From an uncultured bacterium (GTDB lineage Bacteria; Verrucomicrobiota; Verrucomicrobiia; Verrucomicrobiales; DEV007), in NCBI GenBank assembly GCA_963977015.1, contig CAXBMO010000023.1, positions 1 through 64,000 on the forward strand: a DNA stretch of 64,000 bases, read 5' to 3'. The position numbers and the translations under genes were made by a program. This document shows positions 999 through 43,058 of this stretch, one piece after another (position 1 is the first letter of the stretch; every line of letters starts with the position of its first letter). The notes beneath the pieces are model-generated. The model did no database searches. It was not told the origin of the DNA and was given only the letters and a program-made list of their open reading frames with translations.

Positions 999-1058
999 GA
1001 TTTTCAGGAGAAGTCCAATCATGGACTTCCTGAGAAGATGGAACGATGAATGTTGAAA
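999..1058 (+). promoter_or_regulatory. Degenerate copy of the shared promoter/operator module
   Basis: ATCATGGACTTCC matches the copy at 3241-3253. TGGACT at 1022 lies exactly 36 nt before ATG 1058. The upstream palindrome is degenerate. Confidence 0.5.
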
Positions 1059-3184
1059 TGAACCCCTTTGCCCGCGTTTTAGCGCTGTTCGCCATCCTCA
1101 GTTCCGCCTCTTCTGCTCAAGACTCAACGACGCCTGGAGATGCCTCTGCTCTCGTTCTCCACGTCGATCGGAATGGCAGGAACGATGGGGTGGGAACGAT
1201 CGAGGCCCCTTTCGCCAGTCTGGAGGCGGCTCGTGATCATCTGCGCACTCTGCGCGCCGGGGCTAGGCCGCTTCCTTCAGGACCCATCACGGTCTATCTG
1301 AGGGAAGGTGTTTACAGGCGGGATACACCGTTTGTCCTCGGGCCGGACGATGGCGGCAGCGAAGGCTCCCCGGTCGTCTATCGGTCGTTTCCTGGCGAAC
1401 GTGTTCGTCTCAGCGGTGGGATTGCCCTTTCTGCCAAGGATCTCGAAACCGTCACCGATCCGGCCATTCTCAATCGCGTCCCGCCATCCGTGCATGACGC
1501 GATCCGGAAAATCGATCTGCGCAAAGCGGGAGTGACCATGGAGCAATTCGGAGAGATCCAGTATTGGCAGAAAGGCGGGTTGAAGTATCCGGTTGAGCGC
1601 GGTGCGGTCTGGATCGACGGGAAGAAACTGGTCGCGGCCCGGTATCCGAAAGCGAATGGAGGTCCCGCCGGAGATGGATTCGTCCTAACCGGAGAAGTGC
1701 TTCACACTGGTTCGATTCCCCGGCACGGTGTCGAGAAGTTTCCGGCTGGCGGCGTTTTCCAGTATACGGACGAGGAAGTGGCTTCCTGGGCCGCCCACGA
1801 AAACGTCTGGCTCCACGGATACATGAAGGAAACCTATGCCGATGGAACTCTGCGGATCCAGTCGGTCGATACCGAAGCCGGAACCATCGCTGTTGAGCAA
1901 CCGTCCTGGTATGGGATCGGCGAGGGCGGTCGTTATTTCTATCTCAACGTCCTCGAACATCTCTCCCTCCCCGGCGAAAGCTGGATGGACCGGGAGAACG
2001 AAGCGATCTATCTCATTCCGCCGAGCCGTTTTCGCGACGATTCCGTCGTGGAGCTCTCGGTCAGCCGCGAACCCCTTCTTCGCATTGATGGCGCAAGCCA
2101 TTGCGTGATTTCGGGGATCGATTTTCTCCTCACGAGGAGTGATGCGATCCAGGTGGAGCACGGGAGCGGGATATCAGTCGAGAACCTCGAAATTCGCCAG
2201 ATCGAAGGCAACGGAGTTGTGATGCCGAAAACCGGGGTGACCGACAACTCTCTGGTCGAGGTGTCGATGACCCAGGTGGGTGGTTATCCTTTTCGCATCG
2301 GCGGCGGCGACTTGCTCACCCAGAGTGGTGGCAACTCTCTGGTTTCCCATTGCCGCTTCCGTCACTTTGGGCTCAATCGCTCCGGAAAAAGCCAGCTTGG
2401 CGGAGTCGGGAATGTGGTTCGGAACTCGGACTTTTCCCACTGCAAGGAAGGGGCGCTGGCGGTGAGTGGAAACGAGAACTTGGTCGAATACAACCGCTTC
2501 CGGTATCTGAACCGCGAAGGGAGTGACGCGGGGGCTGTCTACATGGGGCGTAACCCCTCCGAAACCGGGACTCGGATCCGCTACAATTACTTTCAAGACA
2601 TCGGCAATGGGATCGAGGAAGACACCGGTATCCAGGGCGTCTACGTCGATGATCGTTCCGGATTCGTCGAGGTCCATGGCAATATTTTCAACCGGGTCGG
2701 CAGCGGGAAACAGGCAGCGGCTTTCAAGGTGAACGGTGGAAAATTCAATGCGTTTACCAACAACATCGTGATCGATGGTCGTGCCGTCTATATTCAGGTT
2801 CACAGCACGACCCCGGAGCAATGGGCGGGCTGGTATCGGAGCAAAGAGATTGCCGCCAAATTGGACCGGGTCGACGCGGAAAACCCGGAGAGCCCGTGGG
2901 CGCGCCTGTATCCGCAGGCTTTCGAAGTGGCCCGCACCGGAGCGATGGCGCCGACGACGAGCAATATCGTAAAGAACAACATCGTGATTCGAGGCGAGCT
3001 TTGTCACGGCATCATCGGAGGCCGCTACGGCGATCCTCTTCCGGAAAAGAGCGGGAACCAGGTAGTGGACCACGACCCCGGTTTTTCCGATCTTGAGGGA
3101 GGCGATCTTTCGATTCCCAAACGCATCATGGAGCTCGAATTCCCCAGTATTGAGTGGATCGATTTCGACCGAATCGGGCCGTAG
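1058..3184 (+). CDS. Secreted right-handed parallel beta-helix protein (putative polysaccharide lyase/glycoside hydrolase)
   Basis: Signal peptide MNPFARVLALFAILSSASSA; N-terminal G-x-D-x-x-x-GT-x-x-x-PFASL-x-x-AR...YLR-x-G-x-Y motif; many Asn-ladder repeats; DAGAVY and GVYVDD motifs. Start 1058 is preferred over 1046 because of promoter geometry. Confidence 0.8.
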   Translation: MNPFARVLALFAILSSASSAQDSTTPGDASALVLHVDRNGRNDGVGTIEAPFASLEAARDHLRTLRAGARPLPSGPITVYLREGVYRRDTPFVLGPDDGGSEGSPVVYRSFPGERVRLSGGIALSAKDLETVTDPAILNRVPPSVHDAIRKIDLRKAGVTMEQFGEIQYWQKGGLKYPVERGAVWIDGKKLVAARYPKANGGPAGDGFVLTGEVLHTGSIPRHGVEKFPAGGVFQYTDEEVASWAAHENVWLHGYMKETYADGTLRIQSVDTEAGTIAVEQPSWYGIGEGGRYFYLNVLEHLSLPGESWMDRENEAIYLIPPSRFRDDSVVELSVSREPLLRIDGASHCVISGIDFLLTRSDAIQVEHGSGISVENLEIRQIEGNGVVMPKTGVTDNSLVEVSMTQVGGYPFRIGGGDLLTQSGGNSLVSHCRFRHFGLNRSGKSQLGGVGNVVRNSDFSHCKEGALAVSGNENLVEYNRFRYLNREGSDAGAVYMGRNPSETGTRIRYNYFQDIGNGIEEDTGIQGVYVDDRSGFVEVHGNIFNRVGSGKQAAAFKVNGGKFNAFTNNIVIDGRAVYIQVHSTTPEQWAGWYRSKEIAAKLDRVDAENPESPWARLYPQAFEVARTGAMAPTTSNIVKNNIVIRGELCHGIIGGRYGDPLPEKSGNQVVDHDPGFSDLEGGDLSIPKRIMELEFPSIEWIDFDRIGP

Positions 3185-3221
3185 TGGAGTGCTTATTATC
3201 ATAAGCCAGACCAATAGCGTG

Positions 3222-3281
3222 AATCTTCATGTGGATTTTGATCATGGACTTCCCTGGCCCGGAGCCCGAACAATGGCAGAA
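3222..3281 (+). promoter_or_regulatory. Shared promoter/operator module (copy before sulfatase 1)
   Basis: AATCTTCATGTGGATTTTGATCATGGACTTCC-N-CCGAACAATGGCAGA-ATG; near-identical to 16882-16941 with the same spacing. Confidence 0.8.
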
Positions 3282-4651
3282 TGAAATCCCTCATCCGCAT
3301 GGTTGTCCTGCTTGCTGCTGTCACCGGAATCCTCTCCGCGCAGGAAGATACCAGGCGCCCGAATATCGTTTTCATCATGGCCGACGATCTTGGGCCGGGC
3401 TGGGTGGACTACGATGGCAGCAATCCCGAAGTCAACACGCTCAATCTCCAGCGACTCGCGGAGAGTGGGATGGTGTTTACGAAGGCGTATGCCGCGTGCT
3501 CGGTTTGTTCACCGACGCGGGCGGCCTGCATCACCGGCATGTCTCCGGCGCAGATCGGAATGACAACGCACATTCCTGGAAAGGCTGGCAATGAGCGCAA
3601 AGGGCCCAAGGGAGGGCCGCGCGATGCGGATTCGCTGGACCATCTCCCGCTCGAACTGCCCAGCTATGCGCGTGAATTGAAAAAGCTGGGCTACACGACC
3701 GGCTTCCTTGGCAAATGGCATTTGGCAGGGGAGGGCTCGGTCGCGACCAGGGATGGAGTCGTGAACGGCGACTGGCATCCGGAGCATTATGGGTTCGATA
3801 CCAACCTCGGCGGCTGTGCCTATGGTCAACCCAAGTCCTGGTTTGATCCCTACCGAAATGGAACCCTTCCGAATCGTAAGGAAGGCGAGTATCTGACGGA
3901 TCGGCTGGGCGACGAAGCGGTCTCGTTCATTGCGGCCAATCAAGACAAGCCCTTTCATTTGACGCTCTGGCCATACTCGGTGCATACCCCGATCAAGGCA
4001 CCGAAAGAGTTGGTGAAAAAGAATGGTGGGAATGCCTTTCTCGCGATGCTCGAAAGCTTGGATGGCGCGGTCGGGAAGGTGCTCAACGCACTCGAAGCGA
4101 CCGGGACGATTGATAACACCATGGTTATTTTCTATTCGGACAACGGCGGTCACATCCCCACCACCTGGTTGGCGGATAAGAAAGCTTCGTTATTGGAAGG
4201 AGGGCTCCGGGTTCCCATGGTGGTTAGTTGGCCGGGAGTGATCAAGGGTGGCACGACCTGTGATGTCCCCGTCAACAGCATGGATTTTTTTCCAACCTTC
4301 GTGCACGCAGCGGGAGGCTCGACGGCGGAGATCGCTCAGTTGGAAGGACTGGACCTCAAGCCGCTCTTTCAGGGGGCGGACCAACTGGATCGCGACGCCC
4401 TTTACTGGCATTTCCCGCATAACCGCATGGAAGCTTCCCACTATATGGGGAGCACGATTCTCGAAGGCGAATGGAAATTCTATCAAGGATACAGTGTGAT
4501 TGAGGACAAACTGTTCAACCTCAAGGAAGATCCCATGGAGACAAGCAGTGTGCTTTCGAGTCACCCGGAATTGGCGGATCGTCTGCGCGGTAAACTTGAA
4601 GGATGGCTTGAAAAGGTGGACGCGAAGATGCCGAAGGAAGCGGCTCTCTAA
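3281..4651 (+). CDS. Sulfatase (S1 family, Cys-type), secreted
   Basis: Signal peptide; PNIVFIMADDLG, CSPTRAACITG, GKWHL, SDNGG and EGGLRVP motifs. Confidence 0.95.
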   Translation: MKSLIRMVVLLAAVTGILSAQEDTRRPNIVFIMADDLGPGWVDYDGSNPEVNTLNLQRLAESGMVFTKAYAACSVCSPTRAACITGMSPAQIGMTTHIPGKAGNERKGPKGGPRDADSLDHLPLELPSYARELKKLGYTTGFLGKWHLAGEGSVATRDGVVNGDWHPEHYGFDTNLGGCAYGQPKSWFDPYRNGTLPNRKEGEYLTDRLGDEAVSFIAANQDKPFHLTLWPYSVHTPIKAPKELVKKNGGNAFLAMLESLDGAVGKVLNALEATGTIDNTMVIFYSDNGGHIPTTWLADKKASLLEGGLRVPMVVSWPGVIKGGTTCDVPVNSMDFFPTFVHAAGGSTAEIAQLEGLDLKPLFQGADQLDRDALYWHFPHNRMEASHYMGSTILEGEWKFYQGYSVIEDKLFNLKEDPMETSSVLSSHPELADRLRGKLEGWLEKVDAKMPKEAAL

Positions 4652-4674
4652 GAATTTCCAATCCAAGAATTCCC

Positions 4675-5682
4675 ATGAACAAGAAGTCCATCATCTCTAC
4701 CGTCGGCCAGCACATCCTTGCGGAACAGCACAAGCATTCCCCCAATGCAACCGGGAGCTTTTCGTGGCTTCTTTCGGGGATCACGCTCGCGACCAAGATG
4801 ATTTCGGCCCGGGTGCGGCGCGCCGGACTCCTCGACGCCACCGGCGCGGTCGGGACCATGAATGTGCAGGGTGAGGAACAGCAGAAGCTTGATGTCTATG
4901 CCGACGAAGCCCTCGTCCATTGCCTCGGCGTACGGGACAATGTCGCCATCATCGCATCAGAGGAGAACGAAGAGGCCATCACCTTCGACGGGCGATCGGG
5001 GAAAGGGAAGTATGTGGTGCTGTTCGACCCGCTCGATGGTTCCTCCAATATTGACGTGAATACGACGGTCGGGACCATCTTCTCGATCCTCTCCCTGCCG
5101 GAAGGAATGTCGGAAAAAGACGATCCGAAGAAGGCGGTTCTCCAGCCGGGCGTCCGTCAGGTCGCGGCGGGCTATGTCGTTTACGGATCGTCCACCATTC
5201 TCGTCTACACTGCCGGGCACGGGGTGCATGGGTTCACCCTCGATCCGGGTGTCGGCGCCTATGTCCTCAGCCACGAGAACATGAGGATGCCGGAGACCGG
5301 TAAGTATTACTCCTGCAATACCGGATACTGGATTGATTTCCCGGCGCACTATCGCGACTACATTTGTCATCTTCGAGACGGAGGAATGGGGCGCGATTAC
5401 TCGCTCCGCTACATCGGTTCGCTGGTGGCGGATTTTCACCGGACGCTCATCAAGGGCGGCATTTTTCTCTACCCGCCCACCGCGAGCAATCCGGAAGGAA
5501 AACTGCGGCTACTTTACGAGGCCAACCCAATGGCCTTCATCGCGGAACAGGCCGGCGGTCTGGCGACGGACGGCACCAGACGCATCATGGAAATCGAACC
5601 CACCGGCATCCACCAGCGCGTCCCACTTGTGGTTGGCGGGAAGAGTGAGATGGAAGCTTTTGAGGAGATTGCTTCGCGTTAA
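4675..5682 (+). CDS. fbp: Fructose-1,6-bisphosphatase class 1
   Basis: NVQGEEQQKLD, ASEE, FDPLDGSSNID, RYIGSLVADFHRTL and GKLRLLYEANP motifs. Confidence 0.97.
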   Translation: MNKKSIISTVGQHILAEQHKHSPNATGSFSWLLSGITLATKMISARVRRAGLLDATGAVGTMNVQGEEQQKLDVYADEALVHCLGVRDNVAIIASEENEEAITFDGRSGKGKYVVLFDPLDGSSNIDVNTTVGTIFSILSLPEGMSEKDDPKKAVLQPGVRQVAAGYVVYGSSTILVYTAGHGVHGFTLDPGVGAYVLSHENMRMPETGKYYSCNTGYWIDFPAHYRDYICHLRDGGMGRDYSLRYIGSLVADFHRTLIKGGIFLYPPTASNPEGKLRLLYEANPMAFIAEQAGGLATDGTRRIMEIEPTGIHQRVPLVVGGKSEMEAFEEIASR

Positions 5683-5705
5683 GGTTCAGTGGCAGGCCCA
5701 CTTCA

Positions 5706-5730: not shown

Positions 5731-5732
5731 AT

Positions 5733-7229
5733 TTACTTGAGCGGCTCAATCTTTACCTCGCCGCCGACTGCGTTGGCGAACGTTTTGTATTGAGACAACG
5801 CTTTTTTGAAATTTGCGCTCGGATTGGCAAACGGGCACCAAAAAACAACTTTCACATTCTTGGAGCGGCACAGGTTTTGAACCTTTCTCATATAACCCGG
5901 ATTGGTAGCATCACTGAAATCAGAGAATACAAAAATCGTTTTGGGATAGGTTGTTTGATTCACCAGCAACTCCAGGGCGGTGCCCAGGCTCTGGAACCCT
6001 CCACCCAGGTTTGTGCTCGAACGAGTGAGTTTATGATTGGACTCGATGGAATCGCACCGCACGACTTTGAACAATGAGCGATTCATTCGCTTTGCTTGAG
6101 CAATGCTTTGCGAAGCACCGGTTTTGGCCGTCTTGGCGTTGATTTCAACCAGTAGCTGCACCTTATCGTTGGATTTGTAAGGAACGATGCTGGTGAGAGG
6201 CCGTTGTTCGAATCCACCACTGAACACCACCATGACTTGGGCGGTTCGAAAACTGCGTTCAATCTCTTCAATCACAAAGGGAACGGACCCATACATGGAC
6301 CGGGTAACATCAAAAACAACCGCCAGCTGGCCGGTGGTGGACATTCCCATGAATGAGCCGGCTCCCGCGCCATCGAGACCCGTACCCATTCCCATGGCGC
6401 CGCTTCCCAGATCACCATCGCCCATCCCAAGCGGGCCTGTGCTGGTTCTGGTCACGTTGGGCACGCTGAAGGCAGCCGTGGTATTGGCCTTCATCATCAT
6501 GGCCATCGGTGCTGCCGCCGATGAGGCGGATGCGGGGTTGCGCTTGACCTGTTTTTGCACCGTCTTCTTTTTCATCTCCTGCTGTGCGGTGGGCGCAGGG
6601 GCAACGATCGACGCCACAATTTCCGGTTCGTCCTTCGTCGGGGGCAGGATGACTAACAAGGCCGCCACCAGCGCGATGGCTGCGTGGACCCCAACCGCAA
6701 TGAGGATCGCGGTGGCCTTGGAGCCATTTCGAGAGTCTGGGGCGTTTTTCTGCGAGACCGGCGCGATCGCGGGCGCGGCGCTGAACGCGACTGGTTGTTC
6801 CTGATAAGCCGGTTCCGGTGGCTGAGGTGCAGGACTTTGGGCGAAGGCGTTGGTGTCGTGAACTGGTATTGGAGATGCGTGGCCGGGGTGCTCCGGATCG
6901 ACCTGATGAGGGATCTGTGTGGCCTCAGTCTGGGAAACTGGATCGGGATCAATTGAGGCGGGCTCGGATTCGGGGGAAGTGCCGTCCACGTTGGGATCGG
7001 GGGCAACCGGAGGGGAGGGAATTGGCGTGCCCGGCAGAGGTGTTAGCAGGTGCGGGGAAAGCTCCCTGAGAATCTTTTTTCGAGCACCCAACGGGACGCC
7101 GATCGACTCCAATTCGGCATCGCTCAAGGAAGCGAGAATCTCGACCTCATCGATCTCGTGGGCCGCAAAGATGTCGGCGTATTTGGTCAGGCCTTTGGCT
7201 TCAAGCCATTCATTGAAGTTCATGGTCAC
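5733..7229 (-). CDS. SAM-domain, Pro-rich, single-TM (His-containing) protein with C-terminal vWA-like domain; putative TonB/TolA-type energy transducer
   Basis: N-terminal SAM signature (WLEAKGLTKYADIFAAHEID...LSDAELESIGVPLGARKKIL); Pro-rich linker; TM AILIAVGVHAAIALVAALLVIL; Gly/Met linker; MIDAS-like LAVVFDVTRSM and TIFVFSD. GTG start overlaps the upstream stop; ATG 7223 is an alternative start. Confidence 0.7.
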   Translation of the reverse strand: MTMNFNEWLEAKGLTKYADIFAAHEIDEVEILASLSDAELESIGVPLGARKKILRELSPHLLTPLPGTPIPSPPVAPDPNVDGTSPESEPASIDPDPVSQTEATQIPHQVDPEHPGHASPIPVHDTNAFAQSPAPQPPEPAYQEQPVAFSAAPAIAPVSQKNAPDSRNGSKATAILIAVGVHAAIALVAALLVILPPTKDEPEIVASIVAPAPTAQQEMKKKTVQKQVKRNPASASSAAAPMAMMMKANTTAAFSVPNVTRTSTGPLGMGDGDLGSGAMGMGTGLDGAGAGSFMGMSTTGQLAVVFDVTRSMYGSVPFVIEEIERSFRTAQVMVVFSGGFEQRPLTSIVPYKSNDKVQLLVEINAKTAKTGASQSIAQAKRMNRSLFKVVRCDSIESNHKLTRSSTNLGGGFQSLGTALELLVNQTTYPKTIFVFSDFSDATNPGYMRKVQNLCRSKNVKVVFWCPFANPSANFKKALSQYKTFANAVGGEVKIEPLK

Positions 7230-8209: not shown

Positions 8210-8238
8210 AGAAATGAGATAGCAGGTGATGGAACGAT

Positions 8239-11142: not shown

Positions 11143-11144
11143 GG

Positions 11145-12909: not shown

Positions 12910-12969
12910 TGCTGACAGATTAGCAATTCAAAGGCAATGAAATCCATACCTCAGATCCACATGCACATT
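12910..12969 (-). promoter_or_regulatory. Shared promoter/operator module (copy driving the exbB operon)
   Basis: Minus strand reads AATGTGCATGTGGATCTGAGGTATGGATTTC. TGGATT-N18-TAATCT with an extended TGn; predicted +1 A at 12910. Confidence 0.75.
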
Positions 12970-13269
12970 TTGTGAAGGCCGATGTCTCCGGGAACAAGAT
13001 GATCTTCACGGATCATGGGTTTAAAACGAAGGGAATGGCAGTGTCCATTCCCGAAAACCATCTGAACATTTTGTCCAATCAGTCGCCGTCTGTGCGAAAG
13101 TCAGGCCAACGTCGTTCGTGACCGTGGTCCTCGCAGCTTTCAACCTGGATGCCGAGAACGGCGGGAATGTGAGCTGGAAGTCTTTGCGGAGATGACTTCG
13201 CGTTGAGTTTCTGCACATTCTATGCGAACTCGCGATGATCTCTGCGAGATATAGTTCAGACAAGACACC

Positions 13270-16715: not shown

Positions 16716-16881
16716 ACTTTGTCAGTGCAATTGTTTTGGCTCAGGTAGTGGTCACAGCGCCTGGTGTCAATCGATCTTGGTGGATCCTCCGTCCAACGAG
16801 GCGCCTTGGCCGAAAGGCGTCAGGGGTTCCCAATGGAGCCCTGATCACGGGCTCGAATCATCCCCGGTTTCCAACTCTGCA

Positions 16882-16941
16882 AATCTTCATGTGGATTTTG
16901 AGCATAGACTTCCTGTGCTGATGGACCGAACAATGGCCGAA
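16882..16941 (+). promoter_or_regulatory. Shared promoter/operator module (copy before sulfatase 3)
   Basis: AATCTTCATGTGGATTTTGAGCATAGACTTCC...CCGAACAATGGCCGA-ATG; same 59-nt offset to ATG as the copy at 3222. Confidence 0.8.
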
Positions 16942-19245: not shown

Positions 19246-19450
19246 GGGGTGGGTTGGTTAATCAATTGGTCGTTCTCCGGCAAAAATGCTTTCGCTTCGG
19301 CACTCCAACAATGGCATGATGGTTTTCCTCTGTGGGATTCTTTTCCGCATGTTAACGGGCGCGCCGATCACGAACGCCGCTCCGAGAGGAAAACAAGCGA
19401 ATGGAAAACTGCGAGTGGCACTCGCCAAAACCTGTGAAACGTTGAGGAAC

Positions 19451-23145: not shown

Positions 23146-24333
23146 ATGAGCGAATCCCAAGAAAAGGCCTCCATCGAATTCATCGACTCGCGTTTCCCTT
23201 CGATCGAGCATCTCCGTGAACGCGCCCGCCAGCGGATGCCGCGTTTTGCCTATGAGTATCTCGAAGGCGGCTGCAATTCGGAGATCAACCTGCGGCGCAA
23301 TACCGACGAGATCCGCGACATTCAGCTGCGGCCGTGGTATCTGCGCGATTATGCGGGTTCGAATCTGAAAACCGAACTGTTTGGCAAGACCTACGATGCC
23401 CCGTTTGGCGTCTCGCCGATCGGACTTCAGGGATTGATGTGGCCACGCGCCACCGAGATTCTCGCCAAAGCGGCCCATGCTCATAACATTCCCTTCATCC
23501 TCAGCACGGTTGGCACGGCCAGCATCGAAACGGTCGCCGAAATCACCGAGGGGAACGCGTGGTTTCAGCTTTATCATCCGGCGGAAGACGAATTGCGCGA
23601 CAAACTCCTCGATCGAGCTGCGGCCGCGGGAATGCCGGTTCTCGTGATCCTTGCCGACACGCCAACGTTTGCGTTTCGGCCCAAAGAGATCAAAAACGGC
23701 CTGTCCATTCCACCTCAGATGTCGCTCAACAACGTCATTCAGATGACGACGCATCCGACCTGGTCATTCGGGCAACTCTTTGCGGGCGCGCCGGAGTTCA
23801 AAACGATGAAGCCCTACATTCCCAAAGGGCTCAGCATGAAACATCTCGGGCTGTTCATGAACAAGACCTTTTCCGGCCGGCTGAATCCTGAGAAGATCAA
23901 AGCAATCCGTGATCGCTGGCAGGGAAAACTCGTCGTCAAGGGCGTCGTGAACGAGGAGGATGCCGCCACCGCGCTCGATCTGGGTGTGGATGGAATGATC
24001 GTGTCGAATCACGGCGGCCGCCAACTCGATGCGGGTCAATCGACGATCAAGCCGCTGACCGAGTTGGCGGAGAAATTCGGCGACCGCACCACGATGATGA
24101 TCGACAGCGGCTTGCGTGCAGGTCCGGATGTTGCGTGCGCGTTGGCCAGTGGTGCGAAGTTCACCTTCATGGGACGCTCCTTCATGTATGGCGTCGGCGC
24201 GTTAGGACGAACTGGCGGGAATCACACCATCACGATGTTGAAACGGCAGTTGCAGCAAGTCATGGAGCAGGTTGGTTGCGAGCGGGTGACGGATTTTCCG
24301 AAGCATTTGGTTCGCAACTCACCCCCAACCTGA
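23146..24333 (+). CDS. FMN-dependent alpha-hydroxy-acid dehydrogenase (L-lactate dehydrogenase-like)
   Basis: YLEGG, WFQLY, VVKGV, VSNHGGRQLD and DSGLRAGPDV motifs. Confidence 0.93.
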   Translation: MSESQEKASIEFIDSRFPSIEHLRERARQRMPRFAYEYLEGGCNSEINLRRNTDEIRDIQLRPWYLRDYAGSNLKTELFGKTYDAPFGVSPIGLQGLMWPRATEILAKAAHAHNIPFILSTVGTASIETVAEITEGNAWFQLYHPAEDELRDKLLDRAAAAGMPVLVILADTPTFAFRPKEIKNGLSIPPQMSLNNVIQMTTHPTWSFGQLFAGAPEFKTMKPYIPKGLSMKHLGLFMNKTFSGRLNPEKIKAIRDRWQGKLVVKGVVNEEDAATALDLGVDGMIVSNHGGRQLDAGQSTIKPLTELAEKFGDRTTMMIDSGLRAGPDVACALASGAKFTFMGRSFMYGVGALGRTGGNHTITMLKRQLQQVMEQVGCERVTDFPKHLVRNSPPT

Positions 24334-33088: not shown

Positions 33089-33964
33089 GTGAAAGAAGCC
33101 CTCGAAATCCACGATGTTGAAACATTTGGTTTAGCTACGCGATATGAGGTCGTGAGGGCACATGCAGATGATGACCGTGGTTGGATTTCCGGTGCACCGA
33201 TCTGCGAACTCTTGAGGATTCATCACATTGCCCACGTTGGACTCATGTGGGCGAAACCGCCGTTTACCGTCATACGCGCGGAGGCCTCCGGAACGTTTGG
33301 ACTGGTGGGGCTGGAAGGTCGGGGCGAGACGTTGATCGACGGCGAATGGCGTGAGGTGAAAGCGGGGGAGATCTGTTTGCTGCCTGCGTTTGCGCCCACC
33401 GGGATTCGCGCAGCCAACAAGAAGGTGTGGAGTTTTGCCTGGGTGCGTTACGAGGAGTCGCGGGAAACCTCTCCGATTTTGTCGTCGAGCAGTCCGGTGA
33501 TCCATGCCGGGAGTGTTCACGCGTTGAATCACGCGATCGCCGGCTTACACGTGGAGGCAACCCGGGAGCCGCCAGAGCCGGCGATGCTGCATCATTGGGT
33601 CGAGTTGATTCACGGGTTCGTGAGGCGTGCGGCTCGGCCCTACCAGGGAGACGACCGTCTGTGGCGGGTGTGGGAGGCTGTCGAAAAGGATCTGGTGCGG
33701 AGTTGGAAGCTGAAGGACTTGGCGGAAATTGGTTGTTTGAGTCCGGAGCATTTGAGGCGCCTCTGCCAGCAGCAGTTGGGAAGGAGCCCCATTCAGCAAG
33801 TGACTTACCTGCGGATGCGCCGAGCCGTGCAGTACCTCACCACGACGCATGAAAAGGTCGAGACGGTTGCACAGGCCGTCGGTTATGAGAATCCCTTTGC
33901 GTTTTCGAACGCGTTCAAACGTTGGACGGGGAGAAGGCCGAGTGATTATCGCGACGAGGCGTGA
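33089..33964 (+). CDS. AraC family transcriptional regulator
   Basis: C-terminal double HTH (LSPEHLRRLCQQQLGRSP...VGYENPFAFSNAFKRWTGRRPSDYR). Confidence 0.93.
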   Translation: MKEALEIHDVETFGLATRYEVVRAHADDDRGWISGAPICELLRIHHIAHVGLMWAKPPFTVIRAEASGTFGLVGLEGRGETLIDGEWREVKAGEICLLPAFAPTGIRAANKKVWSFAWVRYEESRETSPILSSSSPVIHAGSVHALNHAIAGLHVEATREPPEPAMLHHWVELIHGFVRRAARPYQGDDRLWRVWEAVEKDLVRSWKLKDLAEIGCLSPEHLRRLCQQQLGRSPIQQVTYLRMRRAVQYLTTTHEKVETVAQAVGYENPFAFSNAFKRWTGRRPSDYRDEA

Positions 33965-34141: not shown

Positions 34142-34174
34142 AAATCCACATGTGGATTTGAGCCATGGGCTTTC
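34142..34174 (+). promoter_or_regulatory. Shared operator module with a perfect 18-bp palindrome (before PAS-AraC)
   Basis: AAATCCACATGTGGATTT (34142-34159) followed by GAGCCATGGGCTTTC; keeps the CATGTGGAT-N7-ATGG spacing. Confidence 0.75.
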
Positions 34175-34212: not shown

Positions 34213-35040
34213 TTGAGTTCCTGGAAGAAACAGAACGAGCCTGATTCGGGCGGTCTTGAAGGTGAAGAGCATCTCGCTCTTCAGTCAGCGTTTTTTGCAT
34301 CAATGAAAGAACCCCAGGCCATTCGACGATTGTTCGAATACCTCCCTGGTGTTTGTTTCTTTGTCAAAGATCGCGAGAGCCGGTTGATCGCCGGGAACCA
34401 ATTGCTGCTGGACCGGTTGGGGTTGAAGTCGGAAGCCGAACTCATCGGCACCTGTGATGCTGATCACTTTCCACCGGAAGTTTGCGCGGCTATCGTGAAC
34501 GACGACCAACAGGTCTTCCAATCCGGACAACCAATTGTTGGCCGCGTAGAGTTGGGATACAACGCACGGCGGATTCTGGATTGGTACACAACGACCAAGT
34601 TACCCATCCTTGGTCAGGACGACGAAGTGATTGGGCTATGTGGCTTTACCCGGCTTTATGAGAAGGCCAGCCTTCCCGGCCCGGCTTCAGGCTACGCTGG
34701 TCTGGAAGAATCCGTTGACTTGATTCGGCGAAACCCGAACCGGCGGGTCAATTCCGAAGAAATGGCCAAAGCGGCGGGAATATCCGTCAGTCAACTGAGG
34801 CGCAGATTCCGGCAGACTTTTGGAATGACGCCGCGGGAGTTTGAGCAAGTCTCGCGCATCCAAGGCGCGAGTCAGGCCTTGATTGAGAGCGATTCGACGA
34901 TTGCGGAGATCGCGGTCGACTTCGGGTTCTACGATCAGAGTGCCTTCTCCGTACAATTTCGCAAGCACACTGGCTATACCCCTGGAGAATACCGGCAGTT
35001 ACGCACTCAAACGCACAACGCCATACTCCAAAACCACTAA
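34213..35040 (+). CDS. AraC family regulator with N-terminal PAS_4-like domain
   Basis: FFVKDRESR...DDQQVFQSGQP...WYTTTKLP PAS segment; GFYDQSAFSVQFRKHTGYTPGEYR HTH. Start is uncertain (TTG 34213 or a later ATG). Confidence 0.9.
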   Translation: MSSWKKQNEPDSGGLEGEEHLALQSAFFASMKEPQAIRRLFEYLPGVCFFVKDRESRLIAGNQLLLDRLGLKSEAELIGTCDADHFPPEVCAAIVNDDQQVFQSGQPIVGRVELGYNARRILDWYTTTKLPILGQDDEVIGLCGFTRLYEKASLPGPASGYAGLEESVDLIRRNPNRRVNSEEMAKAAGISVSQLRRRFRQTFGMTPREFEQVSRIQGASQALIESDSTIAEIAVDFGFYDQSAFSVQFRKHTGYTPGEYRQLRTQTHNAILQNH

Positions 35041-35691: not shown

Positions 35692-38600
35692 ATGACGAAC
35701 CAACCCGAATCCCCCAAGAAGAAACGTAGTCTTTTGACGCGTCTTTTTGGTCAGAACGAGATTGATGCAGCTTCCGGCAACGGCAAACGCAAGTTGATGT
35801 TCGAGACGCTGGAGGCACGTGTTTTGTATTCCGCTGCACCAGTGGACGGAGGCGTTGAAGCCGAAGCGCCGGAATCCTCTCCCGCAGCTGAGGCGGAACA
35901 CGTTGCCACGGTAACCCCGACGGACCCAAATGCCGAGACGCAGCAATCTGCGGAGGGGACGTTGACACCGGAACCGGTGCGTGACGAAGAAGGTGTTGAT
36001 CAGGTCTTCGCATCGCCGGACGAGATCCCCACGGATTCCTCTGCCGAGGTGGCCGATGCTCCGGCGGACGATTCCGTGCTGACCTCGGAGGACTTGAGCC
36101 CGCTGATTGAGGAGGCCATCGCGCGTTGGACCGAAACCGGGTTGACCGAGGAGCAGGCAGCCGCGCTGTTGAACGTGACCTACGAAGTCGTGGACTTGGA
36201 AAGCAATGCCCTTGGCGTCACCGACGGCTTCGTGATCCGGATTGACGACGATGCGGCGGGAAGCGGGTGGTTCCTCGATGAAACACCGACCTTGGATGAG
36301 GAGTTTCAGTTCGTCTCGGGCACGGAAACGCAGATGGTCGCGGAAATGGATTCGCTGGCGGAAGACCGGTTCGATTTGCTCACGGTGTTGATGCACGAAC
36401 AGGGGCACATTCTGGGCCTGGCCGATGCAACGTCCGATCAGTTCGCCAATTTGATGTCGGGCATTCTTGAAGCTGGGGAACGTCTCACGCCGGCGGAAGC
36501 TCAGGCCGAAGGCGCCACGGCCGGCAGTTTGGAAGGCGAGCGCTTTGCCTTAACCACTTCCACCATCTCAGGTGGCACGCTTTCCATCGTCGGTGATGGG
36601 GCGGACGATGCAGTGATCCTTCAGCTCAACGGGGCAAACTACGAAATCAGCACGGATGGAGGAGCGAATTTTACGACCGTGACGAGCGATGGCAGTCCTG
36701 TGGCGAATATCTCGATCGACTTGGGTGGCGGCAACGATAGCGTCATCATCGATAGCGACATCGATGTGACGGGAACGGTCACGATCACCTCCACGTTGAT
36801 CACCCTCAATGGTGAGGTCGCCTCCGATGGGGATCAGGACTACAGCGGTCGGGTTAGGCTGGGGGCCAATGGAAGTATCGACGCGGGCGGCACGCTCACG
36901 ACATCATCAACTCCTTCCCGTGTTTTGGTCGGTTATGACTTCGATAATGGAGGTTCTACCCTTGATGAGCAACGGGCGGCAACAGTCACCGACGCAAACG
37001 TTTCAGCAAGTTTGTTTGATACGGGTGCAGGACTAATTACCCGTGTCGATTCATCCGCAAACAGTGCTTCAGGAGCCAATGATGCGGAGGGCTTTGCGTT
37101 CGGCACCGCCAATGATTTTTCCTTCGGTGGTGCTCAGAGCAACTTTGGTTTCGCGGACCAAGGCAATGGAGATAACTTGGATAGTGGTACCAGGAATGCG
37201 GTGGCGCAAGATGACTACATGACCTTTAGTGTCACTCCTGCGCCCGGCAATCAGATGAACCTGACAAGCTTCTCCTTCCTGACGCGTGTCAATACCACTG
37301 GCAATTCGGCGGAGAGATGGGCGCTCTTTGCGTCAACGGATGGATTTGCAACCGCTCCTGCCACCGGGAATGCCATCGCCATCGGACAAACGACCACCGT
37401 GACTACCTTTGTTTCGAACGTGGTGGATTTGAGCGCTGCTGAATTTCAAGGGATTACCTCGGAGATTGAATTTCGTCTCTACATCTATGGGGGAAATAAT
37501 AGCAGTAGTTCCGCAACGCAGTTTGATAAGGTAATCCTCAACGGGAATACCAGCTCCTTGAACAACGCCCCAGTCGCCACCAACGACACCGCAACGGTTA
37601 CTGAGGCTGGTGGCTACCAAAACAACATCGCCGGGAGCGATGCGTCGGGCAATGTCATCACGGATGCGACCGCTGACAGCGATGCGGATGCTGGCGATAC
37701 GCTTTCCATCACGGAGATCGATAGTAACCCGGTAGCAGCGAACACCACCAGCGTCGATGGAACCCTGGTAGCCGGAACTTATGGCAGCCTGCGAATTGGC
37801 GCGGATGGATCGTGGACCTATACCGTCGATCAATCGGATGCCGATACCGAGGCGCTGGCGACGGGCGATTCTCCGACCGAAGTTTTCACCTATACCCTCA
37901 GCGACGGAACCGACACGGCAACGGCAACCTTGACCGTAACCGTGAATGGTGCTGATGACGCCGTGAGCGGGATTCTCTACGTCGATGGCAGTTGGAGTGG
38001 ATTGAACGCGGGTGACCGGATTGAGGATGCCGATGCGGGAACGACCGGGGACCAGTTGGCGTTTTTCAATGGCAATGCCTTCGCCACAATTGGAGACGCG
38101 ATCGCAAATGCGGGGACCGGAGACACTATTGTGGTAAACGCTGGAACCTACGATGAGACGGTGGTTCTGAATGATGGCAAAACCCTCGAAATCACCGGCC
38201 CGAATGTGGATCAGGCGGTCACGGTTACCGAGTTGTCCAGCGACGTCGGAACCACGATCACGATCGAAGGCGGGTCCACGTTGACCTTTGCCAATACCAC
38301 AGAGCAAACGATTGCTGGAACCGTCGAAGGCTCCGGAAGTTTGGTGGCGAGCAATACCGCCAACCTCTTCTTGAGTGGCGCAAATACTTACGCTGGTGGA
38401 ACGACGCTGACGGACGGTTCCCAGTTAACGGCCTCCAACACGAGCGCACTTGGCTCAGGAACCGCCACCTTAACCGGCACTGGTGTCTCGCTGATTTTTG
38501 GCGTGGACGGTACGTTCGCCAATGCGATTGAAACCCTTGACAACGGCGATGACAAATCCATCACCGCAGCTTCTGGAACGAACGTGGTATTGACGGGTGA

Positions 38601-41600
38601 CATCAATCTGAACGATGGATCTGCCCCTCATAATCGGTTCGCGGTGGAGGCCGACGCAACCCTGTTAGTCAATGGGCTCATCACTGCTGGTTCAGGGTTT
38701 AACCAAATCTCAGGCAATTCGGCTTCAGAACTGATCTTGACGAACGCATCGAACGCGATCGGCGGGACGATCAATATAGAAGCTGATGGCAGACTTGTGG
38801 TGAGAAATAGTGGTGCTGCAGGGACTGCCGAGATTCGCATTGATGCCTTGAATGCGACTTTGGTTTTGGGGGATGGGGTGGACCTTGCGAATACCGTTGA
38901 GTTTGGCCAAGATGAGACCACCAAATTTATCAGGCTCGAAGATGGGGCGACATCCGCGACGATTTCCGGCACCTTCCAGATCTTCGAAAGCAATGTGAAT
39001 TCGAACCGAATCGTCTTGGAAACAGGGCAAACCCTGGAGATTTCGGGTCCCGTCACACGAGTCAACAGCGGCCGCGTTTTGAATTTGTTCGGCGATGGGA
39101 CTCTCATCCTTAGCAATTCATCGATTGCGATTAATGAGGAAATTGATGTGAGATCTGGGACGTTGATCCTGAATGGAACCCAATTGGACTTCGGGCTAAC
39201 GGTTTATGTGCGAACAGGTGCAACCCTGGGTGGAACCGGCTCCATTCAAGGCACCGGATCGAACGGAAACGCGACGATTTTAGGGACATTACTGGGTGAC
39301 ACGACCGCTCTGGACGGGACGGGAACCCTGACCATCAACACGGGAGCTACGCTCGATTTAACCAGCGCCGACGTTTCTTCGGATGCTGCCAGCTACAGCC
39401 TGGCGACATTCTCCAGTGTCGTCGGAACGTTTGATAACGTTGTCGGACTTCCCAGCGGTTATGAAGTGGAATACACCGCCACGGGCGTCAATCTTGTGAA
39501 GAGCAACCAGGCTCCAACCATTACCAGTTCCGACACCGTCAACTTTGCCGAGAACGGCGTGGGAACGGTTATTGATGTCCAGTCCACCGATACCGAAGGT
39601 TCCACTGAGGGAGCGGGATTGACCTATACGATTTCCGGCGGCGCGGATTCGGCTCGTTTCGATATCGATGCCAACACCGGCGTGTTGACCTTCAAGAGCG
39701 CACCGGATTTTGAGGCTCCGTCCGATGCGAATACCGACAATGATTACCTGGTCCAGATCACGGTGACCGATGACGGTGGTTTGACCGATGTGCAGGATCT
39801 CACGGTTTCAGTGACCAATCTTGACGAGGCTCCAAGTATCACCAGTGGCGCCACCGCCAACTTTGCCGAGAATGGAACGGGCACGGTCATAGACGTCGAA
39901 TCAACCGATCCGGAAGGCTCAACCGAAGGATCTGGACTGACTTACTCGATTTCCGGCGGTGCCGATTCGGCTCTCTTCGGCATCGACGCCAACACTGGCG
40001 AGTTGACCTTCAACAGCGCACCGGATTTTGAGGTTCCGGCAGATTCCGGCTCCGACAATGTCTACAACGTTCAGGTTCAGGTTTCGGACGGCACGAACGA
40101 CGTCACTCAGGACATCGCGGTGACGGTTACGAATGTTGACGAAGCTCCGAGCATCACCAGTGGCGCCACCGCCAACTTTGCGGAGAATGGCACGGGCACG
40201 GTCATTGATGTTCAGTCCACCGATCCGGAAGGCTCAACCGAAGGATCTGGATTGACTTACTCGATTTCCGGCGGTGCCGATTCGGCTCTCTTTGGCATCG
40301 ACGCCAATACCGGCGAACTGACCTTCAACAGCGCACCGGATTTTGAGGTTCCGGCAGATTCCGGCTCCGACAATGTCTACAACGTTCAGGTTCAGGTTTC
40401 GGACGGCACGAACGACGTCACTCAGGACATGGCGGTGACGGTCACGAATGTCAACGAAGCTCCGGTGAACACGGTGCCGGGCGCCCAAAGCGTCAATGAA
40501 GATACCGCCTTGGCGATCGGCGGCGTGAGCGTGAATGATGTGGATGGCAATCTGGCTGCCATGCAGGTATCGGTGACCAATGGAACGTTGAGCGTGACCT
40601 TGAGCGGAGCTGCCACGATCAGCGCGGGAGCCAACAACAGTGCTACGGTTACGATCAGTGGTAGTGAAACGGACATCAACGCGACTCTGGCGAGCCTGAG
40701 CTACCAAGGTAACTTGGACTTTGCGGGCAACGACACCCTCAGCCTAGTTTCTACCGACAGTGGCGGGACTCCGCTGAGCGACACCGACGCGGTGGCGATT
40801 ACGGTGAACCCAGTCAATGATGCACCAGTGCTCACGGGGGACCTGGTAGCAAATATCCAGGGTGGTTCCACCTACACCATCTCGGCGTCCGATCTGGGCT
40901 ATTCCGATCCGGACGATATCGATGCGGGGGTGACTTTCACCGCGGGCAGTGCGGTAAACGGCAAAATCCAGGTTGGTGGCGTCGATGCCAATAGCTTCAC
41001 TGGCACGCAACTGGCTGCGGGAGATGTCACCTTTGTTCACGACGGAACTCAGGCAAACAGCGCCTCGTTTACAGTCAATGTTGAAGACGGAAACGAAGAC
41101 GGCAGCCCGCCAACCAACAGCACTTTCAACTTTGTGGTGACTCCGGCTTCGTCCGTTGTTTTGGCTGGCTATGATTTCACGACGGATAACACGGCGACGA
41201 CGGCAGATGGAGTCAGCGCCTCCGCCGTTACCGGGGCTGGAGGATTCTCCAATGCCGGTGTTGTCGGATCAATTGGCGACACGACTCAGGAGGCTGCCAG
41301 TGGAACACCCTTTGGCTCTTCCTCGACCGGAAGTTATGGCGACACCAATGATGGAATTGATGGCAACAATCTCGCTCAAGCCATTACTGGTCAGGACTAC
41401 ATCACTGTCACCATCACTGCGGAGTCTGGAAACACCCTCACCGTGACGGGATTTTCCGTCGATACGGCTCGCGCTGGTGGCAGGTCTCCGGAAAGCTACA
41501 ACATTCTGGCGCAGGTGAATGGCGGCACGACATGGGATGCTTCAGGTGCCTTGACGACAAACCAGGAAACCTTGATCTCTCAAGCGACCACGGACTGGCA

Positions 41601-42696
41601 TGACACCTTTATCGATCTATCCGGGGATCCTACGTTCCAGGAGATACAGTCGGTCGAGTTCCGGATCTATTTCTGGGGCGCTAGCGGATCTACCAACAGT
41701 TCGCGAATCAACATTGACCAGTTGGTGGTTGAAGGAACGGTCAATCCGATCAACACCGGCGGTGAAACGACAACTTCGCCGACTGTGGTGAAGACCGAGA
41801 CCGATGCAGGGACGGTTACCGGCTCTCAAAACGTGGCGAAGGCGTTGGACCCGCAAGGTGCCGTGGGTAACGCGTTGAGCGCGCTAGATTCATTGGTTTC
41901 GCTCTTCAACTCCTTCCAGTCCAACGCGGGTGATTTCTCGGGGCGCGCCAACCAGGTTTCGTCCGGAATTTTCATCTTCAGCATCACACCGCTCTTCGCT
42001 GACGACGGAACCCTCCAGGACGGATTCGTGAGTCTCGGGTTTACGGGGACCTCTCAATCCGGCAACGAAATATCGATCACAGGGCAATTCAACCCGCTAT
42101 CCACGGTCAACAATGGCTTCAATTTCCAGGGACTCGACGGCACTCCGATGACGGTGGTGGAAGTTTATCAGGCATTGCTCCGTCCGGTGTATAATGAAGA
42201 ATATGCGTTTGGCGGACCGCTGGAAGGTGATGACGAAGAACGAGATCGCTACACCTACGTCCCGACCGCTTCGGAAACTGAAGAGGTTCTGGCTGCCACC
42301 GAAGCGAATCCGGAATCGCAAACAGACTTCAGCAATCTCCTCGACGCAGTTCAGTCGACAGAAGCATCCTCGATTTTTGCAGGAGTGCAGGTTGGCGAGA
42401 CGTTCGAGGATTTGGTTCCCGTGTTGGCCGGCTCAGGCATCCCTGGAGAGGAGTTGATCCTTCGTGTGAACGGCAACCGGTATCACGTAATCGTGGATGA
42501 GCATGGAAATTGGATGAATCTCTTTCCTGACGAGAAACTTCCTCCGGGTTCGCGGGTTGAAGTTGCGTCGGCCCACGCCTCCGAAGGCGCAAGGGTCTAT
42601 GAAGTCGATTCCTTTGACACCGAAAACGTGTTGGAACAGGACGGCGATGTGAAATCCGGCGACATGCTGGGACAGATCGTTGACGCGGTATCCTGA
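35692..42696 (+). CDS. Giant (2334 aa) LEPR-XLL surface protein: metzincin-like domain, VCBS/Ig repeat, autotransporter-associated beta-strand region, cadherin-like repeats, duplicated beta-sandwich domain
   Basis: FETLEARVLYS; HEQGHILGLAD..LMSG; GTYGSLRIGADGSWTYTVD; LSGANTYAGGTTL; three APxITS...APDFE repeats; no PEP-CTERM or beta-barrel at the C-terminus. Confidence 0.85.
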   Translation: MTNQPESPKKKRSLLTRLFGQNEIDAASGNGKRKLMFETLEARVLYSAAPVDGGVEAEAPESSPAAEAEHVATVTPTDPNAETQQSAEGTLTPEPVRDEEGVDQVFASPDEIPTDSSAEVADAPADDSVLTSEDLSPLIEEAIARWTETGLTEEQAAALLNVTYEVVDLESNALGVTDGFVIRIDDDAAGSGWFLDETPTLDEEFQFVSGTETQMVAEMDSLAEDRFDLLTVLMHEQGHILGLADATSDQFANLMSGILEAGERLTPAEAQAEGATAGSLEGERFALTTSTISGGTLSIVGDGADDAVILQLNGANYEISTDGGANFTTVTSDGSPVANISIDLGGGNDSVIIDSDIDVTGTVTITSTLITLNGEVASDGDQDYSGRVRLGANGSIDAGGTLTTSSTPSRVLVGYDFDNGGSTLDEQRAATVTDANVSASLFDTGAGLITRVDSSANSASGANDAEGFAFGTANDFSFGGAQSNFGFADQGNGDNLDSGTRNAVAQDDYMTFSVTPAPGNQMNLTSFSFLTRVNTTGNSAERWALFASTDGFATAPATGNAIAIGQTTTVTTFVSNVVDLSAAEFQGITSEIEFRLYIYGGNNSSSSATQFDKVILNGNTSSLNNAPVATNDTATVTEAGGYQNNIAGSDASGNVITDATADSDADAGDTLSITEIDSNPVAANTTSVDGTLVAGTYGSLRIGADGSWTYTVDQSDADTEALATGDSPTEVFTYTLSDGTDTATATLTVTVNGADDAVSGILYVDGSWSGLNAGDRIEDADAGTTGDQLAFFNGNAFATIGDAIANAGTGDTIVVNAGTYDETVVLNDGKTLEITGPNVDQAVTVTELSSDVGTTITIEGGSTLTFANTTEQTIAGTVEGSGSLVASNTANLFLSGANTYAGGTTLTDGSQLTASNTSALGSGTATLTGTGVSLIFGVDGTFANAIETLDNGDDKSITAASGTNVVLTGDINLNDGSAPHNRFAVEADATLLVNGLITAGSGFNQISGNSASELILTNASNAIGGTINIEADGRLVVRNSGAAGTAEIRIDALNATLVLGDGVDLANTVEFGQDETTKFIRLEDGATSATISGTFQIFESNVNSNRIVLETGQTLEISGPVTRVNSGRVLNLFGDGTLILSNSSIAINEEIDVRSGTLILNGTQLDFGLTVYVRTGATLGGTGSIQGTGSNGNATILGTLLGDTTALDGTGTLTINTGATLDLTSADVSSDAASYSLATFSSVVGTFDNVVGLPSGYEVEYTATGVNLVKSNQAPTITSSDTVNFAENGVGTVIDVQSTDTEGSTEGAGLTYTISGGADSARFDIDANTGVLTFKSAPDFEAPSDANTDNDYLVQITVTDDGGLTDVQDLTVSVTNLDEAPSITSGATANFAENGTGTVIDVESTDPEGSTEGSGLTYSISGGADSALFGIDANTGELTFNSAPDFEVPADSGSDNVYNVQVQVSDGTNDVTQDIAVTVTNVDEAPSITSGATANFAENGTGTVIDVQSTDPEGSTEGSGLTYSISGGADSALFGIDANTGELTFNSAPDFEVPADSGSDNVYNVQVQVSDGTNDVTQDMAVTVTNVNEAPVNTVPGAQSVNEDTALAIGGVSVNDVDGNLAAMQVSVTNGTLSVTLSGAATISAGANNSATVTISGSETDINATLASLSYQGNLDFAGNDTLSLVSTDSGGTPLSDTDAVAITVNPVNDAPVLTGDLVANIQGGSTYTISASDLGYSDPDDIDAGVTFTAGSAVNGKIQVGGVDANSFTGTQLAAGDVTFVHDGTQANSASFTVNVEDGNEDGSPPTNSTFNFVVTPASSVVLAGYDFTTDNTATTADGVSASAVTGAGGFSNAGVVGSIGDTTQEAASGTPFGSSSTGSYGDTNDGIDGNNLAQAITGQDYITVTITAESGNTLTVTGFSVDTARAGGRSPESYNILAQVNGGTTWDASGALTTNQETLISQATTDWHDTFIDLSGDPTFQEIQSVEFRIYFWGASGSTNSSRINIDQLVVEGTVNPINTGGETTTSPTVVKTETDAGTVTGSQNVAKALDPQGAVGNALSALDSLVSLFNSFQSNAGDFSGRANQVSSGIFIFSITPLFADDGTLQDGFVSLGFTGTSQSGNEISITGQFNPLSTVNNGFNFQGLDGTPMTVVEVYQALLRPVYNEEYAFGGPLEGDDEERDRYTYVPTASETEEVLAATEANPESQTDFSNLLDAVQSTEASSIFAGVQVGETFEDLVPVLAGSGIPGEELILRVNGNRYHVIVDEHGNWMNLFPDEKLPPGSRVEVASAHASEGARVYEVDSFDTENVLEQDGDVKSGDMLGQIVDAVS
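39505..40452 (+). repeat. Three tandem cadherin-like repeats (318, 315 and 315 bp)
   Basis: Units start at 39505, 39823 and 40138. Units 2 and 3 are nearly identical at DNA level. Confidence 0.92.
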
Positions 42697-42998
42697 GTTA
42701 CTGCCCGCCCATTTCCCGGCGCAACCTGATTGGCACCCAAGGGTTCCAGTTGTGGACCTCTGCATTGCGTGTGAATCGGCCAATGAACCATTTTGCCAAG
42801 ATGAAAGATGAACCCGGCGTTTACCCGCAAAGTCGCAGTTGCGAACGTTTCGCCACGCTGAAATCCAGCGGTCAGCCGACGGATCGGGCTCTGTGGAAGA
42901 AGGTGACATCAAAGGCTGGAGTCTGTTCTCCACCAGTTGGGAAGAGAAAACGCTGGATTTTGGAAGATTGTATTTATTTTGTATTTACCGACATTGTG

Positions 42999-43058
42999 AA
43001 TCCAGATGTGGATTTTGACTATGGAAGAACCCCGCTTGCGCCTGTTAGCATTCATGCA
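42999..43058 (+). promoter_or_regulatory. Shared promoter/operator module (copy before the pilin-like cassette)
   Basis: AATCCAGATGTGGATTTTGACTATGGAAG; TGGAAG-N18-TAGCAT with an extended TGn; A of an ATG at the predicted +1 (43058); AT-rich TTGTATTTA direct repeat just upstream. Confidence 0.75.

Follow-up and report, generated by a model that had tools for sequence, protein, structure and literature searches.

Background

Class II activation by AraC-type proteins is already known and its control logic is textbook; two described systems come closest to the one reported here. In Pseudomonas putida the two-domain AraC proteins XylS and BenR act at the promoters Pm and Pb through tandem two-box operators, Od and Op, and BenR activates Pb, the distal operator of which is without its A box (bioRxiv 10.1101/400788). 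In Bacillus subtilis the AraC-family dimer Btr binds a direct repeat at PfeuA whose right arm overlaps a weak -35 element beginning TG-G (written TgG; PMC3333878). In this article we describe a repeated spaced motif in a stretch of 64,000 nucleotides (the window), namely bases 1-64000 of contig C23 of a 6.89-Mb genome (G000) with Verrucomicrobiales-type genes, and we argue that the motif is likely to be the operator of a cupin-AraC transcription factor encoded at 33089-33964 in the same window.

The proposed system likewise combines a two-domain AraC protein with two-box sites, and the Pb distal operator is one box short, as we propose for the compact sites described below; sequence, ligand and targets are unrelated to those of XylS/BenR, and up to 13 promoters would be involved here, all with predicted sites only (bioRxiv 10.1101/400788). 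In Btr the siderophore-binding domain is C-terminal and a single operon is the target (PMC3333878), whereas the 33089 protein has a predicted N-terminal cupin only. The predicted cupin and dimer helices of the latter align to the ligand domains of Clostridium BgaR (PDB 6nwo; Z 12.4, root-mean-square deviation 3.2, 156 residues) and Escherichia coli AraC (PDB 2aac; Z 10.1, deviation 4.0, 142 residues); at 10-15% identity, and with an AraC equivalog score of 66 against a cut-off of 208 bits, the ligand is not transferable.

Detection and genome-wide distribution of the motif

The earlier note on this DNA had described six equivalent copies of the motif. The five 30-mers that it quoted, at 3222, 12969 (minus strand), 16882, 34143 and 42999, are exact in coordinates and strand and are real copies; the sixth, at 999 before a beta-helix gene, is degenerate: 194 positions in the genome and 150 in simulated sequence score as high as its 9.1 bits. 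The consensus R-M-A-T-N4-ATGTGGATTT-N4-YATGG occurs 13 times in the genome, and all 13 occurrences are intergenic and aimed at a gene on the same strand, the intergenic share of the genome being 12.4% by our own gene calls (these come from a simple caller written for the analysis, and some starts are wrong, e.g., those of exbB and the beta-helix gene).

A first matrix derived from the window copies found further copies elsewhere in the genome, and in leave-one-out scoring no more than 4-9 positions among the 13.77 million of the genome, with training copies counted, scored as high as or higher than each held-out copy. The iterated matrix converged on 13 sites scoring 31.6-43.1 bits, with one doubtful AT-rich match at 26.4 bits and nothing else above 20. 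When the matrix was trained on 27 sites from foreign genomes, the top 13 matches were the five window copies and eight more (25.3-39.1 bits; next match 19.7), which is a consistency check and not a blind one, as those foreign sites had originally been found with a pattern or matrix from this genome. In 13.48 million positions simulated with an order-4 Markov model, the score stayed below 20 bits throughout. Column-shuffled matrices, a weaker control, gave 0-12 matches at 18 bits or more versus 17 with the real matrix, so that only the high-scoring tail is informative. The repeated motif is a real, conserved regulon signal.

The fourteenth match (G000:C24:53524) was dropped, since its sequence is AT-rich and the foreign-trained matrix did not rank it among the top matches, and a weak second copy at 13071 on the minus strand of the window (15.4 bits) lies inside the simulated background. 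In the scan of this genome no site was found before the genes at 19286, 20944, 23146 and 13270 or before the AraC gene itself. Literature searches, with most subscription journals and regulon databases outside their reach, returned no description of the motif or regulon.

Anatomy of the site

Over 55 sites the consensus is R-M-A-T-N4-ATGTGGATTT-N2-R-N-Y-A-T-G-G, i.e., three boxes within 27 bp: a distal RMAT, a central TGTGGATT, and YATGG over the -35 position. Four low-scoring matches in the loci L092-L099 were excluded from the site set. The purine at -8 is present in 55/55 sites and the purine at +12 in 53/55, neither being part of the search patterns, and MAT at -7 is found in all 14 sites that were chosen without using it. 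Two AT pairs, at -6/-5 and +15/+16, are invariant and lie 21 bp apart. The 19-bp core is asymmetric and oriented in 13/13 sites, and its length compares with the ~17-20 bp expected of a two-box AraC/XylS site. The reading of the site as a palindrome followed by a third half-site, TGGAyT, is revised: the outer bases are palindromic and the inner arm is not (left-arm complementarity in 27, 39, 39, 19, 19, 14, 18 and 33 of 40 sites), and beyond ATGG the supposed third half-site is not conserved in the 55 sites; we see instead an asymmetric site in which the final TGG takes up the first positions of a weak -35.

A dimeric palindrome binder encoded elsewhere, a repressor or CRP-like protein that reads AATCCACATGTGGATT with ATGG serving merely as the -35, would agree with the 34143 copy, which is a perfect 16-bp palindrome, with the ~45% complementarity of the inner left arm, and with TnG at 16-18, which is compatible with a -35. 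This explanation is nevertheless very unlikely given the strict orientation of the sites, the invariant GTG without a conserved mirror (the inner left arm is complementary in only 14-19 of 40 sites), the existence of a tandem form that lacks the left arm, and the bases A15 and T16, which are invariant over the 55 sites and are kept in both tandem halves in G017 and G002, away from any -35.

The candidate regulator

The earlier note held that the regulator cannot be identified from sequence alone; genome comparison points to the cupin-AraC gene at 33089-33964. The C-terminal ~100 residues of its product form a predicted double helix-turn-helix domain (PF12833, 76.4 bits against a cut-off of 33.6; fold matches with Z 14-17), and the modelled N-terminal domain is a predicted cupin with helices like those of BgaR and AraC, with profile matches to the AraC N-domain at E ~1e-3.

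Among 41 relatives the motif pattern occurs six times in G017, three times in G002, twice in G013 and once each in G030, G001 and six others, and its reversed form occurs in none. Orthologues of at least 65% identity are present in exactly four of these 41, namely G002, G013, G017 and G030; those of G013 and G030 are closely followed by a site. In a survey of 161 genomes of the order, in which at most 15 candidates were scored per genome, all 8 genomes with an orthologue of at least 67% contain the pattern, in 6 cases at least twice; 23 of the other 153 contain it at least once and only one (G109) twice. In the species collection 8/8 full loci of 69-86% orthologues carry sites, and a ninth, partial locus (L122) has none. 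Sites at the orthologue loci precede TIM-barrel/Tm-1, flavin mononucleotide (FMN) dehydrogenase, DUF1080, exbB or esterase/beta-helix genes. The AraC gene is the only regulator gene that recurs in the cluster among the loci read, and in G117 and G125 it lies inside a site-led operon. Fisher tests were set aside, as kin are not independent. Twelve loci with single pattern matches and no close regulator were also read: five of six in one set, together with L148, L150 and L151, have the match inside a long reading frame, L149 is below threshold, and the matches in G090 and G139 look intergenic.

In the tree the close orthologues group as a single clade (100/100), which includes an Opitutia assembly and splits two genomes of one genus, a pattern that hints at horizontal spread; the closest named relatives of the regulator are Verrucomicrobiota assemblies.

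Two other regulators each adjoin a site, the PAS-AraC gene at 34213 and an XylR-like gene beside the site on contig C39, and the PAS-AraC gene stands behind a site in both G000 and G002, as an autoregulated gene would. Neither tracks the motif, and both were rejected as the binder, a role that is highly improbable for either: PAS-AraC homologues of at least 55% are confined to G002, G015 and G023, while G013, G017 and G030 have sites and nothing above 43%, and the XylR-like protein is found in 3/41 genomes, G002, G013 and G030 not among them.

Distant homologues and the tandem form

Upstream of distant homologues of the cupin-AraC protein (35-52%) the intergenic DNA contains the core described above and, at +21, a second and weaker repeat of it (13 sites; 21 is the best extra offset). 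Half-sites two helical turns apart are thus seen in these 13 tandem-form sites; the window form repeats only the AT box at 21 bp. With a matrix for the tandem form, a site at the AraC start exceeds the 99th percentile of the null in 13/29 held-out loci, two of the 13 being near-copies of a training locus. The same matrix gives a site at the AraC start in 0/14 close-orthologue loci and no clear site set in this genome. G017 and G002 have both forms and one regulator.

The first recognition helix, E-H-L-R-R, is near-invariant across the close and distant groups, like the central box. The second differs, being SNAFKR in one and mostly SNTFLK or SNTFKK (Verrucomicrobiales) in the other, in parallel with the variable second box; since the contrast is between one clade and the rest, the apparent co-variation of second helix and second box is only suggestive.

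Homologues of 44-52% lie head-to-head with a TIM-barrel gene in eight genomes, and the AraC-TIM-barrel link extends to Alphaproteobacteria and a planctomycete. In Fodinicurvata, Microvirga and a planctomycete (loci L107, L110, L111-L113 and L115) members of the subfamily lie beside TIM-barrel and Tm-1 genes, with branched-chain-type binding proteins or an SRPBCC gene nearby. In one family of genomes (f5) the distant AraC homologue is present in 40/41, so that the divergon looks to be core in that family.

Promoter geometry

A hexamer nAnnnT begins 38-40 bases past the first base of the core in 31/40 sites (null mean 6.1, maximum 13), and the same test on 15 later, held-out sites gives 14/15 (null mean 2.0, maximum 4). 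The -10-like hexamer that had been placed 18 nt after the last TGG is indeed present at 999, 3222, 12969, 16882 and 42999; the 34143 copy fits less well, as had also been noticed, its CAAGAT hexamer being two bases closer. If the spacer is taken as 17 bp, the last three bases of the site, TGG or in some cases TTG or TAG, make up the first half of a -35. On this geometry the sites are laid out like those of class II activators at sigma70 promoters whose -35 is poor, as described for Btr (PMC3333878). Three elements of the original proposal thus find support: a fixed geometry over the -35, orientation toward the downstream gene and, as a prediction, a single factor.

An alternative sigma promoter, of the extracytoplasmic function (ECF) or sigma54 type, is hardly plausible as the identity of the motif. 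Its spacing is fixed, its boxes contain TGG, and ECF genes lie in the window and beside contig C13; the three boxes, however, extend over 27 bp upstream of a separate sigma70-type -10, an nAnnnT hexamer of the genome's general type, and no sigma gene recurs in the clusters read. The GG-to-GG distance is 13 here, which differs from the sigma54 spacing and counts against such a promoter.

The A that had been noted 6 nt past the hexamer is present; at 1058, 3281 and 16941 it is the first base of the ATG. As the start codon also stands 6 nt past the hexamer at C13:163071, the transcripts from these four genes are probably leaderless. Across the genome the commonest gap between TAnnnT and the start codon is 6 nt (51/1120 genes, with 7-29 for the other gaps), and no such maximum is seen for Shine-Dalgarno-like words; leaderless initiation looks common in this organism, to judge from these counts. 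The stretches 999-1130, 3222-3350 and 16882-17010 share promoter DNA, a predicted leaderless ATG and signal-peptide codons ending S-A-Q-[ED], and the degenerate copy thus has flank and signal-peptide DNA in common with the copies at 3222 and 16882. The genes behind the three are one beta-helix gene and two sulfatase genes only 31% alike; it seems that promoter and signal peptide were copied together, as a module, from gene to gene. At 43058-43159 and after the site at C5:8995 a predicted leaderless ATG opens a short frame before the first cassette gene; these frames, ahead of the two pilin-like cassettes, have 33 and 22 codons and dissimilar sequences.

Target genes

Pfam/NCBIfam searches agree with the downstream genes listed in the earlier note: two sulfatases, ExbB-ExbD-ExbD-TPR, PAS-AraC and a Verru_Chthon-like pilin cassette, the proteins of which score below the TIGR cut-offs. 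The claim of one regulon holds as regards the shared motif; as regards extent, the regulon is bigger than the window and centred on genes outside it. There, sites lead two near-identical operons of a phosphoenolpyruvate (PEP)-hydrolase-like TIM barrel and a UPF0261-Dabb (Tm-1) protein, followed in one case by an FMN dehydrogenase, as well as two DUF1080/PVC (Planctomycetes-Verrucomicrobia-Chlamydiae)-type haem dehydrogenase (cytochrome c) units, a second cassette, two DUF1552 clusters and one sulfatase. By comparison across genomes, the TIM-barrel, Tm-1/UPF0261 kinase-like, FMN dehydrogenase and DUF1080/cytochrome c genes are the conserved core, and the dehydrogenase at 23146-24333 is, by similarity, a piece of that conserved cluster. 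Sulfatases and ExbBD recur as site-led genes in relatives (the exbB site in loci L096 and L142), and the order AraC, site, PAS-AraC is retained in G002; the pilin-like cassettes, the DUF1552 clusters and PAS-AraC are additions in this genome. Only 3 of 113 sulfatase-like genes directly follow a site, so this is not a general sulfatase regulon.

Several targets are paralogue pairs (99, 97, 93, 69 and 61% identity) and some promoters have common flanks, so that the 13 sites amount to about eight independent acquisitions; the site at 42998-43024, for example, has a paralogous promoter at G000:C5:8995. That the copies are merely duplicated promoter DNA without shared regulation is, however, barely credible, for although 30-38 of 57 downstream bases are common to 999/3222/16882, and 25/36 upstream and 36/57 downstream bases to 42999/C5:8995, with several targets paralogous, other promoter pairs have only the boxes in common, and the boxes are kept across unrelated targets in many genomes while spacers vary.

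The TIM-barrel and Tm-1-Dabb genes at G000:C13:163071-165570 and C39:12407-14906 are recent duplicates (99% and 97%). Dabb is fused to the Tm-1 protein here and is a separate gene in several relatives. The core UPF0261 target matches plant Tm-1 (E 3e-74), itself a fusion of the UPF0261 and TIM-barrel domains (PMC5028733), and MarK, a UPF0261 aromatic kinase of Novosphingobium (E 2e-61 to PDB 9mpy; PMC12624787). Compared with a MarK-type kinase at the ATP-site lysine and the acetovanillone pocket, it retains the residues aligned to MarK K16, G195, H219 and H304, i.e., 4/8 named residues as read from the alignment, and the pocket residues T196, F283, I285 and H348 align to N, M, N and I. Unlike MarK, it has a fused Dabb domain, and a TIM-barrel gene precedes its gene.

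Proposed mechanism and ligand

The observed motif, geometry, conservation and gene linkage lead us to infer binding, activation, a dimer register, start sites and a ligand as follows. The cupin-AraC protein would act as a ligand-dependent class II activator of sigma70 promoters, which we regard as likely. Its ligand-bound dimer would occupy two half-sites in a 21-bp tandem register; each helix-turn-helix of the promoter-proximal subunit would read one box, TGTGGATT or YAT, and the last three bases of the site would be the first three of the poor -35. In the distal half-site only the AT of the second box would be specified, by the RMAT box that precedes YAT by exactly 21 bp. The ancestral divergon would have combined a strong upstream half with a weak downstream half; in the compact promoters of this clade the strong half would abut the -35 and the distal half would keep only its AT box.

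Several findings weigh against this proposal. In the compact form an upstream central box at -21 is not detectable, so that two bases, together with the tandem form, are what the dimer register is built on. Complementarity of the inner left arm is seen in ~45% of sites, above the ~25% expected, and the model does not account for this part of the palindromic character. A family-profile search found no homologue in three genomes with sites, G109 (two strong sites, 95% complete), G090 (one) and G001 (one); in G139 the single compact site is accompanied by nothing closer than a 46% homologue, and no site was detected for 16/29 distant homologues. The G001 site precedes a DUF1080 fragment, and incomplete assembly or relic sites may explain the sites that lack a regulator. 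Since the sites and the regulator move together as a single cluster, and since the close orthologues are one clade, their co-occurrence is overstated. Lastly, the genome has 19 AraC-type genes, three of which were tested as binder.

The sulfatases, GH141-like proteins, esterase and DUF1080 genes indicate a glycan-derived sugar, the DUF1080 family being linked to 3-ketoglycoside breakdown (PMC9007349), and we give roughly even chances to a sugar-type catabolite of sulfated glycans as the inducer. The likeness of UPF0261 to MarK and the position of the FMN enzyme between lactate and mandelate dehydrogenases keep an aromatic compound as a candidate, an unlikely one; something other than either is possible, less so than the sugar and more so than the aromatic. 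Structure searches with the FMN dehydrogenase, DUF1080 and beta-helix proteins fixed no substrate. More speculatively, the Tm-1-like kinase and TIM-barrel protein might themselves be the source of the AraC inducer, e.g., a phosphorylated sugar, in a positive feedback suggested by the location of the regulator in the Tm-1/TIM-barrel operon in some genomes. The switch would then have been rewired in one mobile clade, through the compact operator and the copying of the promoter-plus-leaderless-signal-peptide module onto new genes, so as to control a programme for the cell surface that comprises sulfatases, ExbBD energisers and Verru_Chthon pilin-like cassettes. We consider this scenario doubtful; if true, it would give the first regulatory role for bacterial relatives of both plant Tm-1 halves and the first inducing condition for Verru_Chthon pilin-like cassettes.

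The analysis links a predicted operator to an AraC subfamily that is so far unstudied, a pairing that holds across Verrucomicrobiota and, with weaker support, in other phyla. The subfamily is tied to the UPF0261 and TIM-barrel pair, for which our literature searches gave one catalytic function only, that of MarK. The regulator with a 60-bp promoter could serve as a reporter for inducer screening, making the function of the pair testable, and an inducer would indicate both its substrate and the condition that induces the sulfatases, ExbBD-TPR and the pilin-like cassettes.

Features of the window

Coordinates are collected in Table 1. The match of the GH141-like beta-helix gene to BT_1002 (E 1.2e-6) covers 87 residues only.

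Table 1. Predicted sites, promoter elements and associated genes in the 64,000-nt window
Feature	Position	Strand	Context	Score or remark
Degenerate copy	998..1060	+	promoter half and predicted leaderless ATG (1058) retained, central box lost	9.1 bits, chance level
GH141-like beta-helix gene	1058-3184	+	behind degenerate copy	
Predicted activator site	3221..3247	+	before sulfatase 3281-4651 and FBPase 4675-5682	35.7 bits, foreign-trained matrix
-10-like AACAAT, 6 nt, sulfatase ATG	3269..3283	+	predicted leaderless start	inferred
TG-extended TAATCT	12922-12917	-	before exbB operon	
Predicted activator site	12944..12970	-	before exbB-exbD-exbD-TPR-TPR-SAM/vWA operon (12863 down to 5733)	33.3 bits
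Predicted activator site	16881..16907	+	before sulfatase 16941-18305	31.4 bits
-10-like AACAAT	16929-16934	+	ATG at 16941	
FMN-dependent alpha-hydroxy-acid dehydrogenase	23146..24333	+		93% to G000:C39 copy in site-led operon
Cupin-AraC transcription factor, proposed binder	33089..33964	+		HTH_18 E 2e-21; model with predicted local distance difference test (pLDDT) 88.8
Predicted activator site	34142..34168	+	between AraC and PAS-AraC (34213 or 34303 to 35040) genes	39.1 bits
Predicted activator site	42998..43024	+	before Verru_Chthon-like pilin cassette 43166-49476	37.9 bits
TG-extended TAGCAT	43046-43051	+	ATG at 43058 opens 33-codon frame	

The last gene of the ExbBD-TPR operon (5733-7229) encodes a SAM-domain protein with a weak vWA match. 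Immediately upstream of the pilin-like cassette, 35692-42696 encodes a cadherin-repeat protein of 2334 residues. The region 50738-62180 contains an ECF sigma gene, a FecR/laminin-G anti-sigma gene and two pairs of DUF1549/DUF1553 plus DUF1501 genes, an arrangement common in PVC bacteria.

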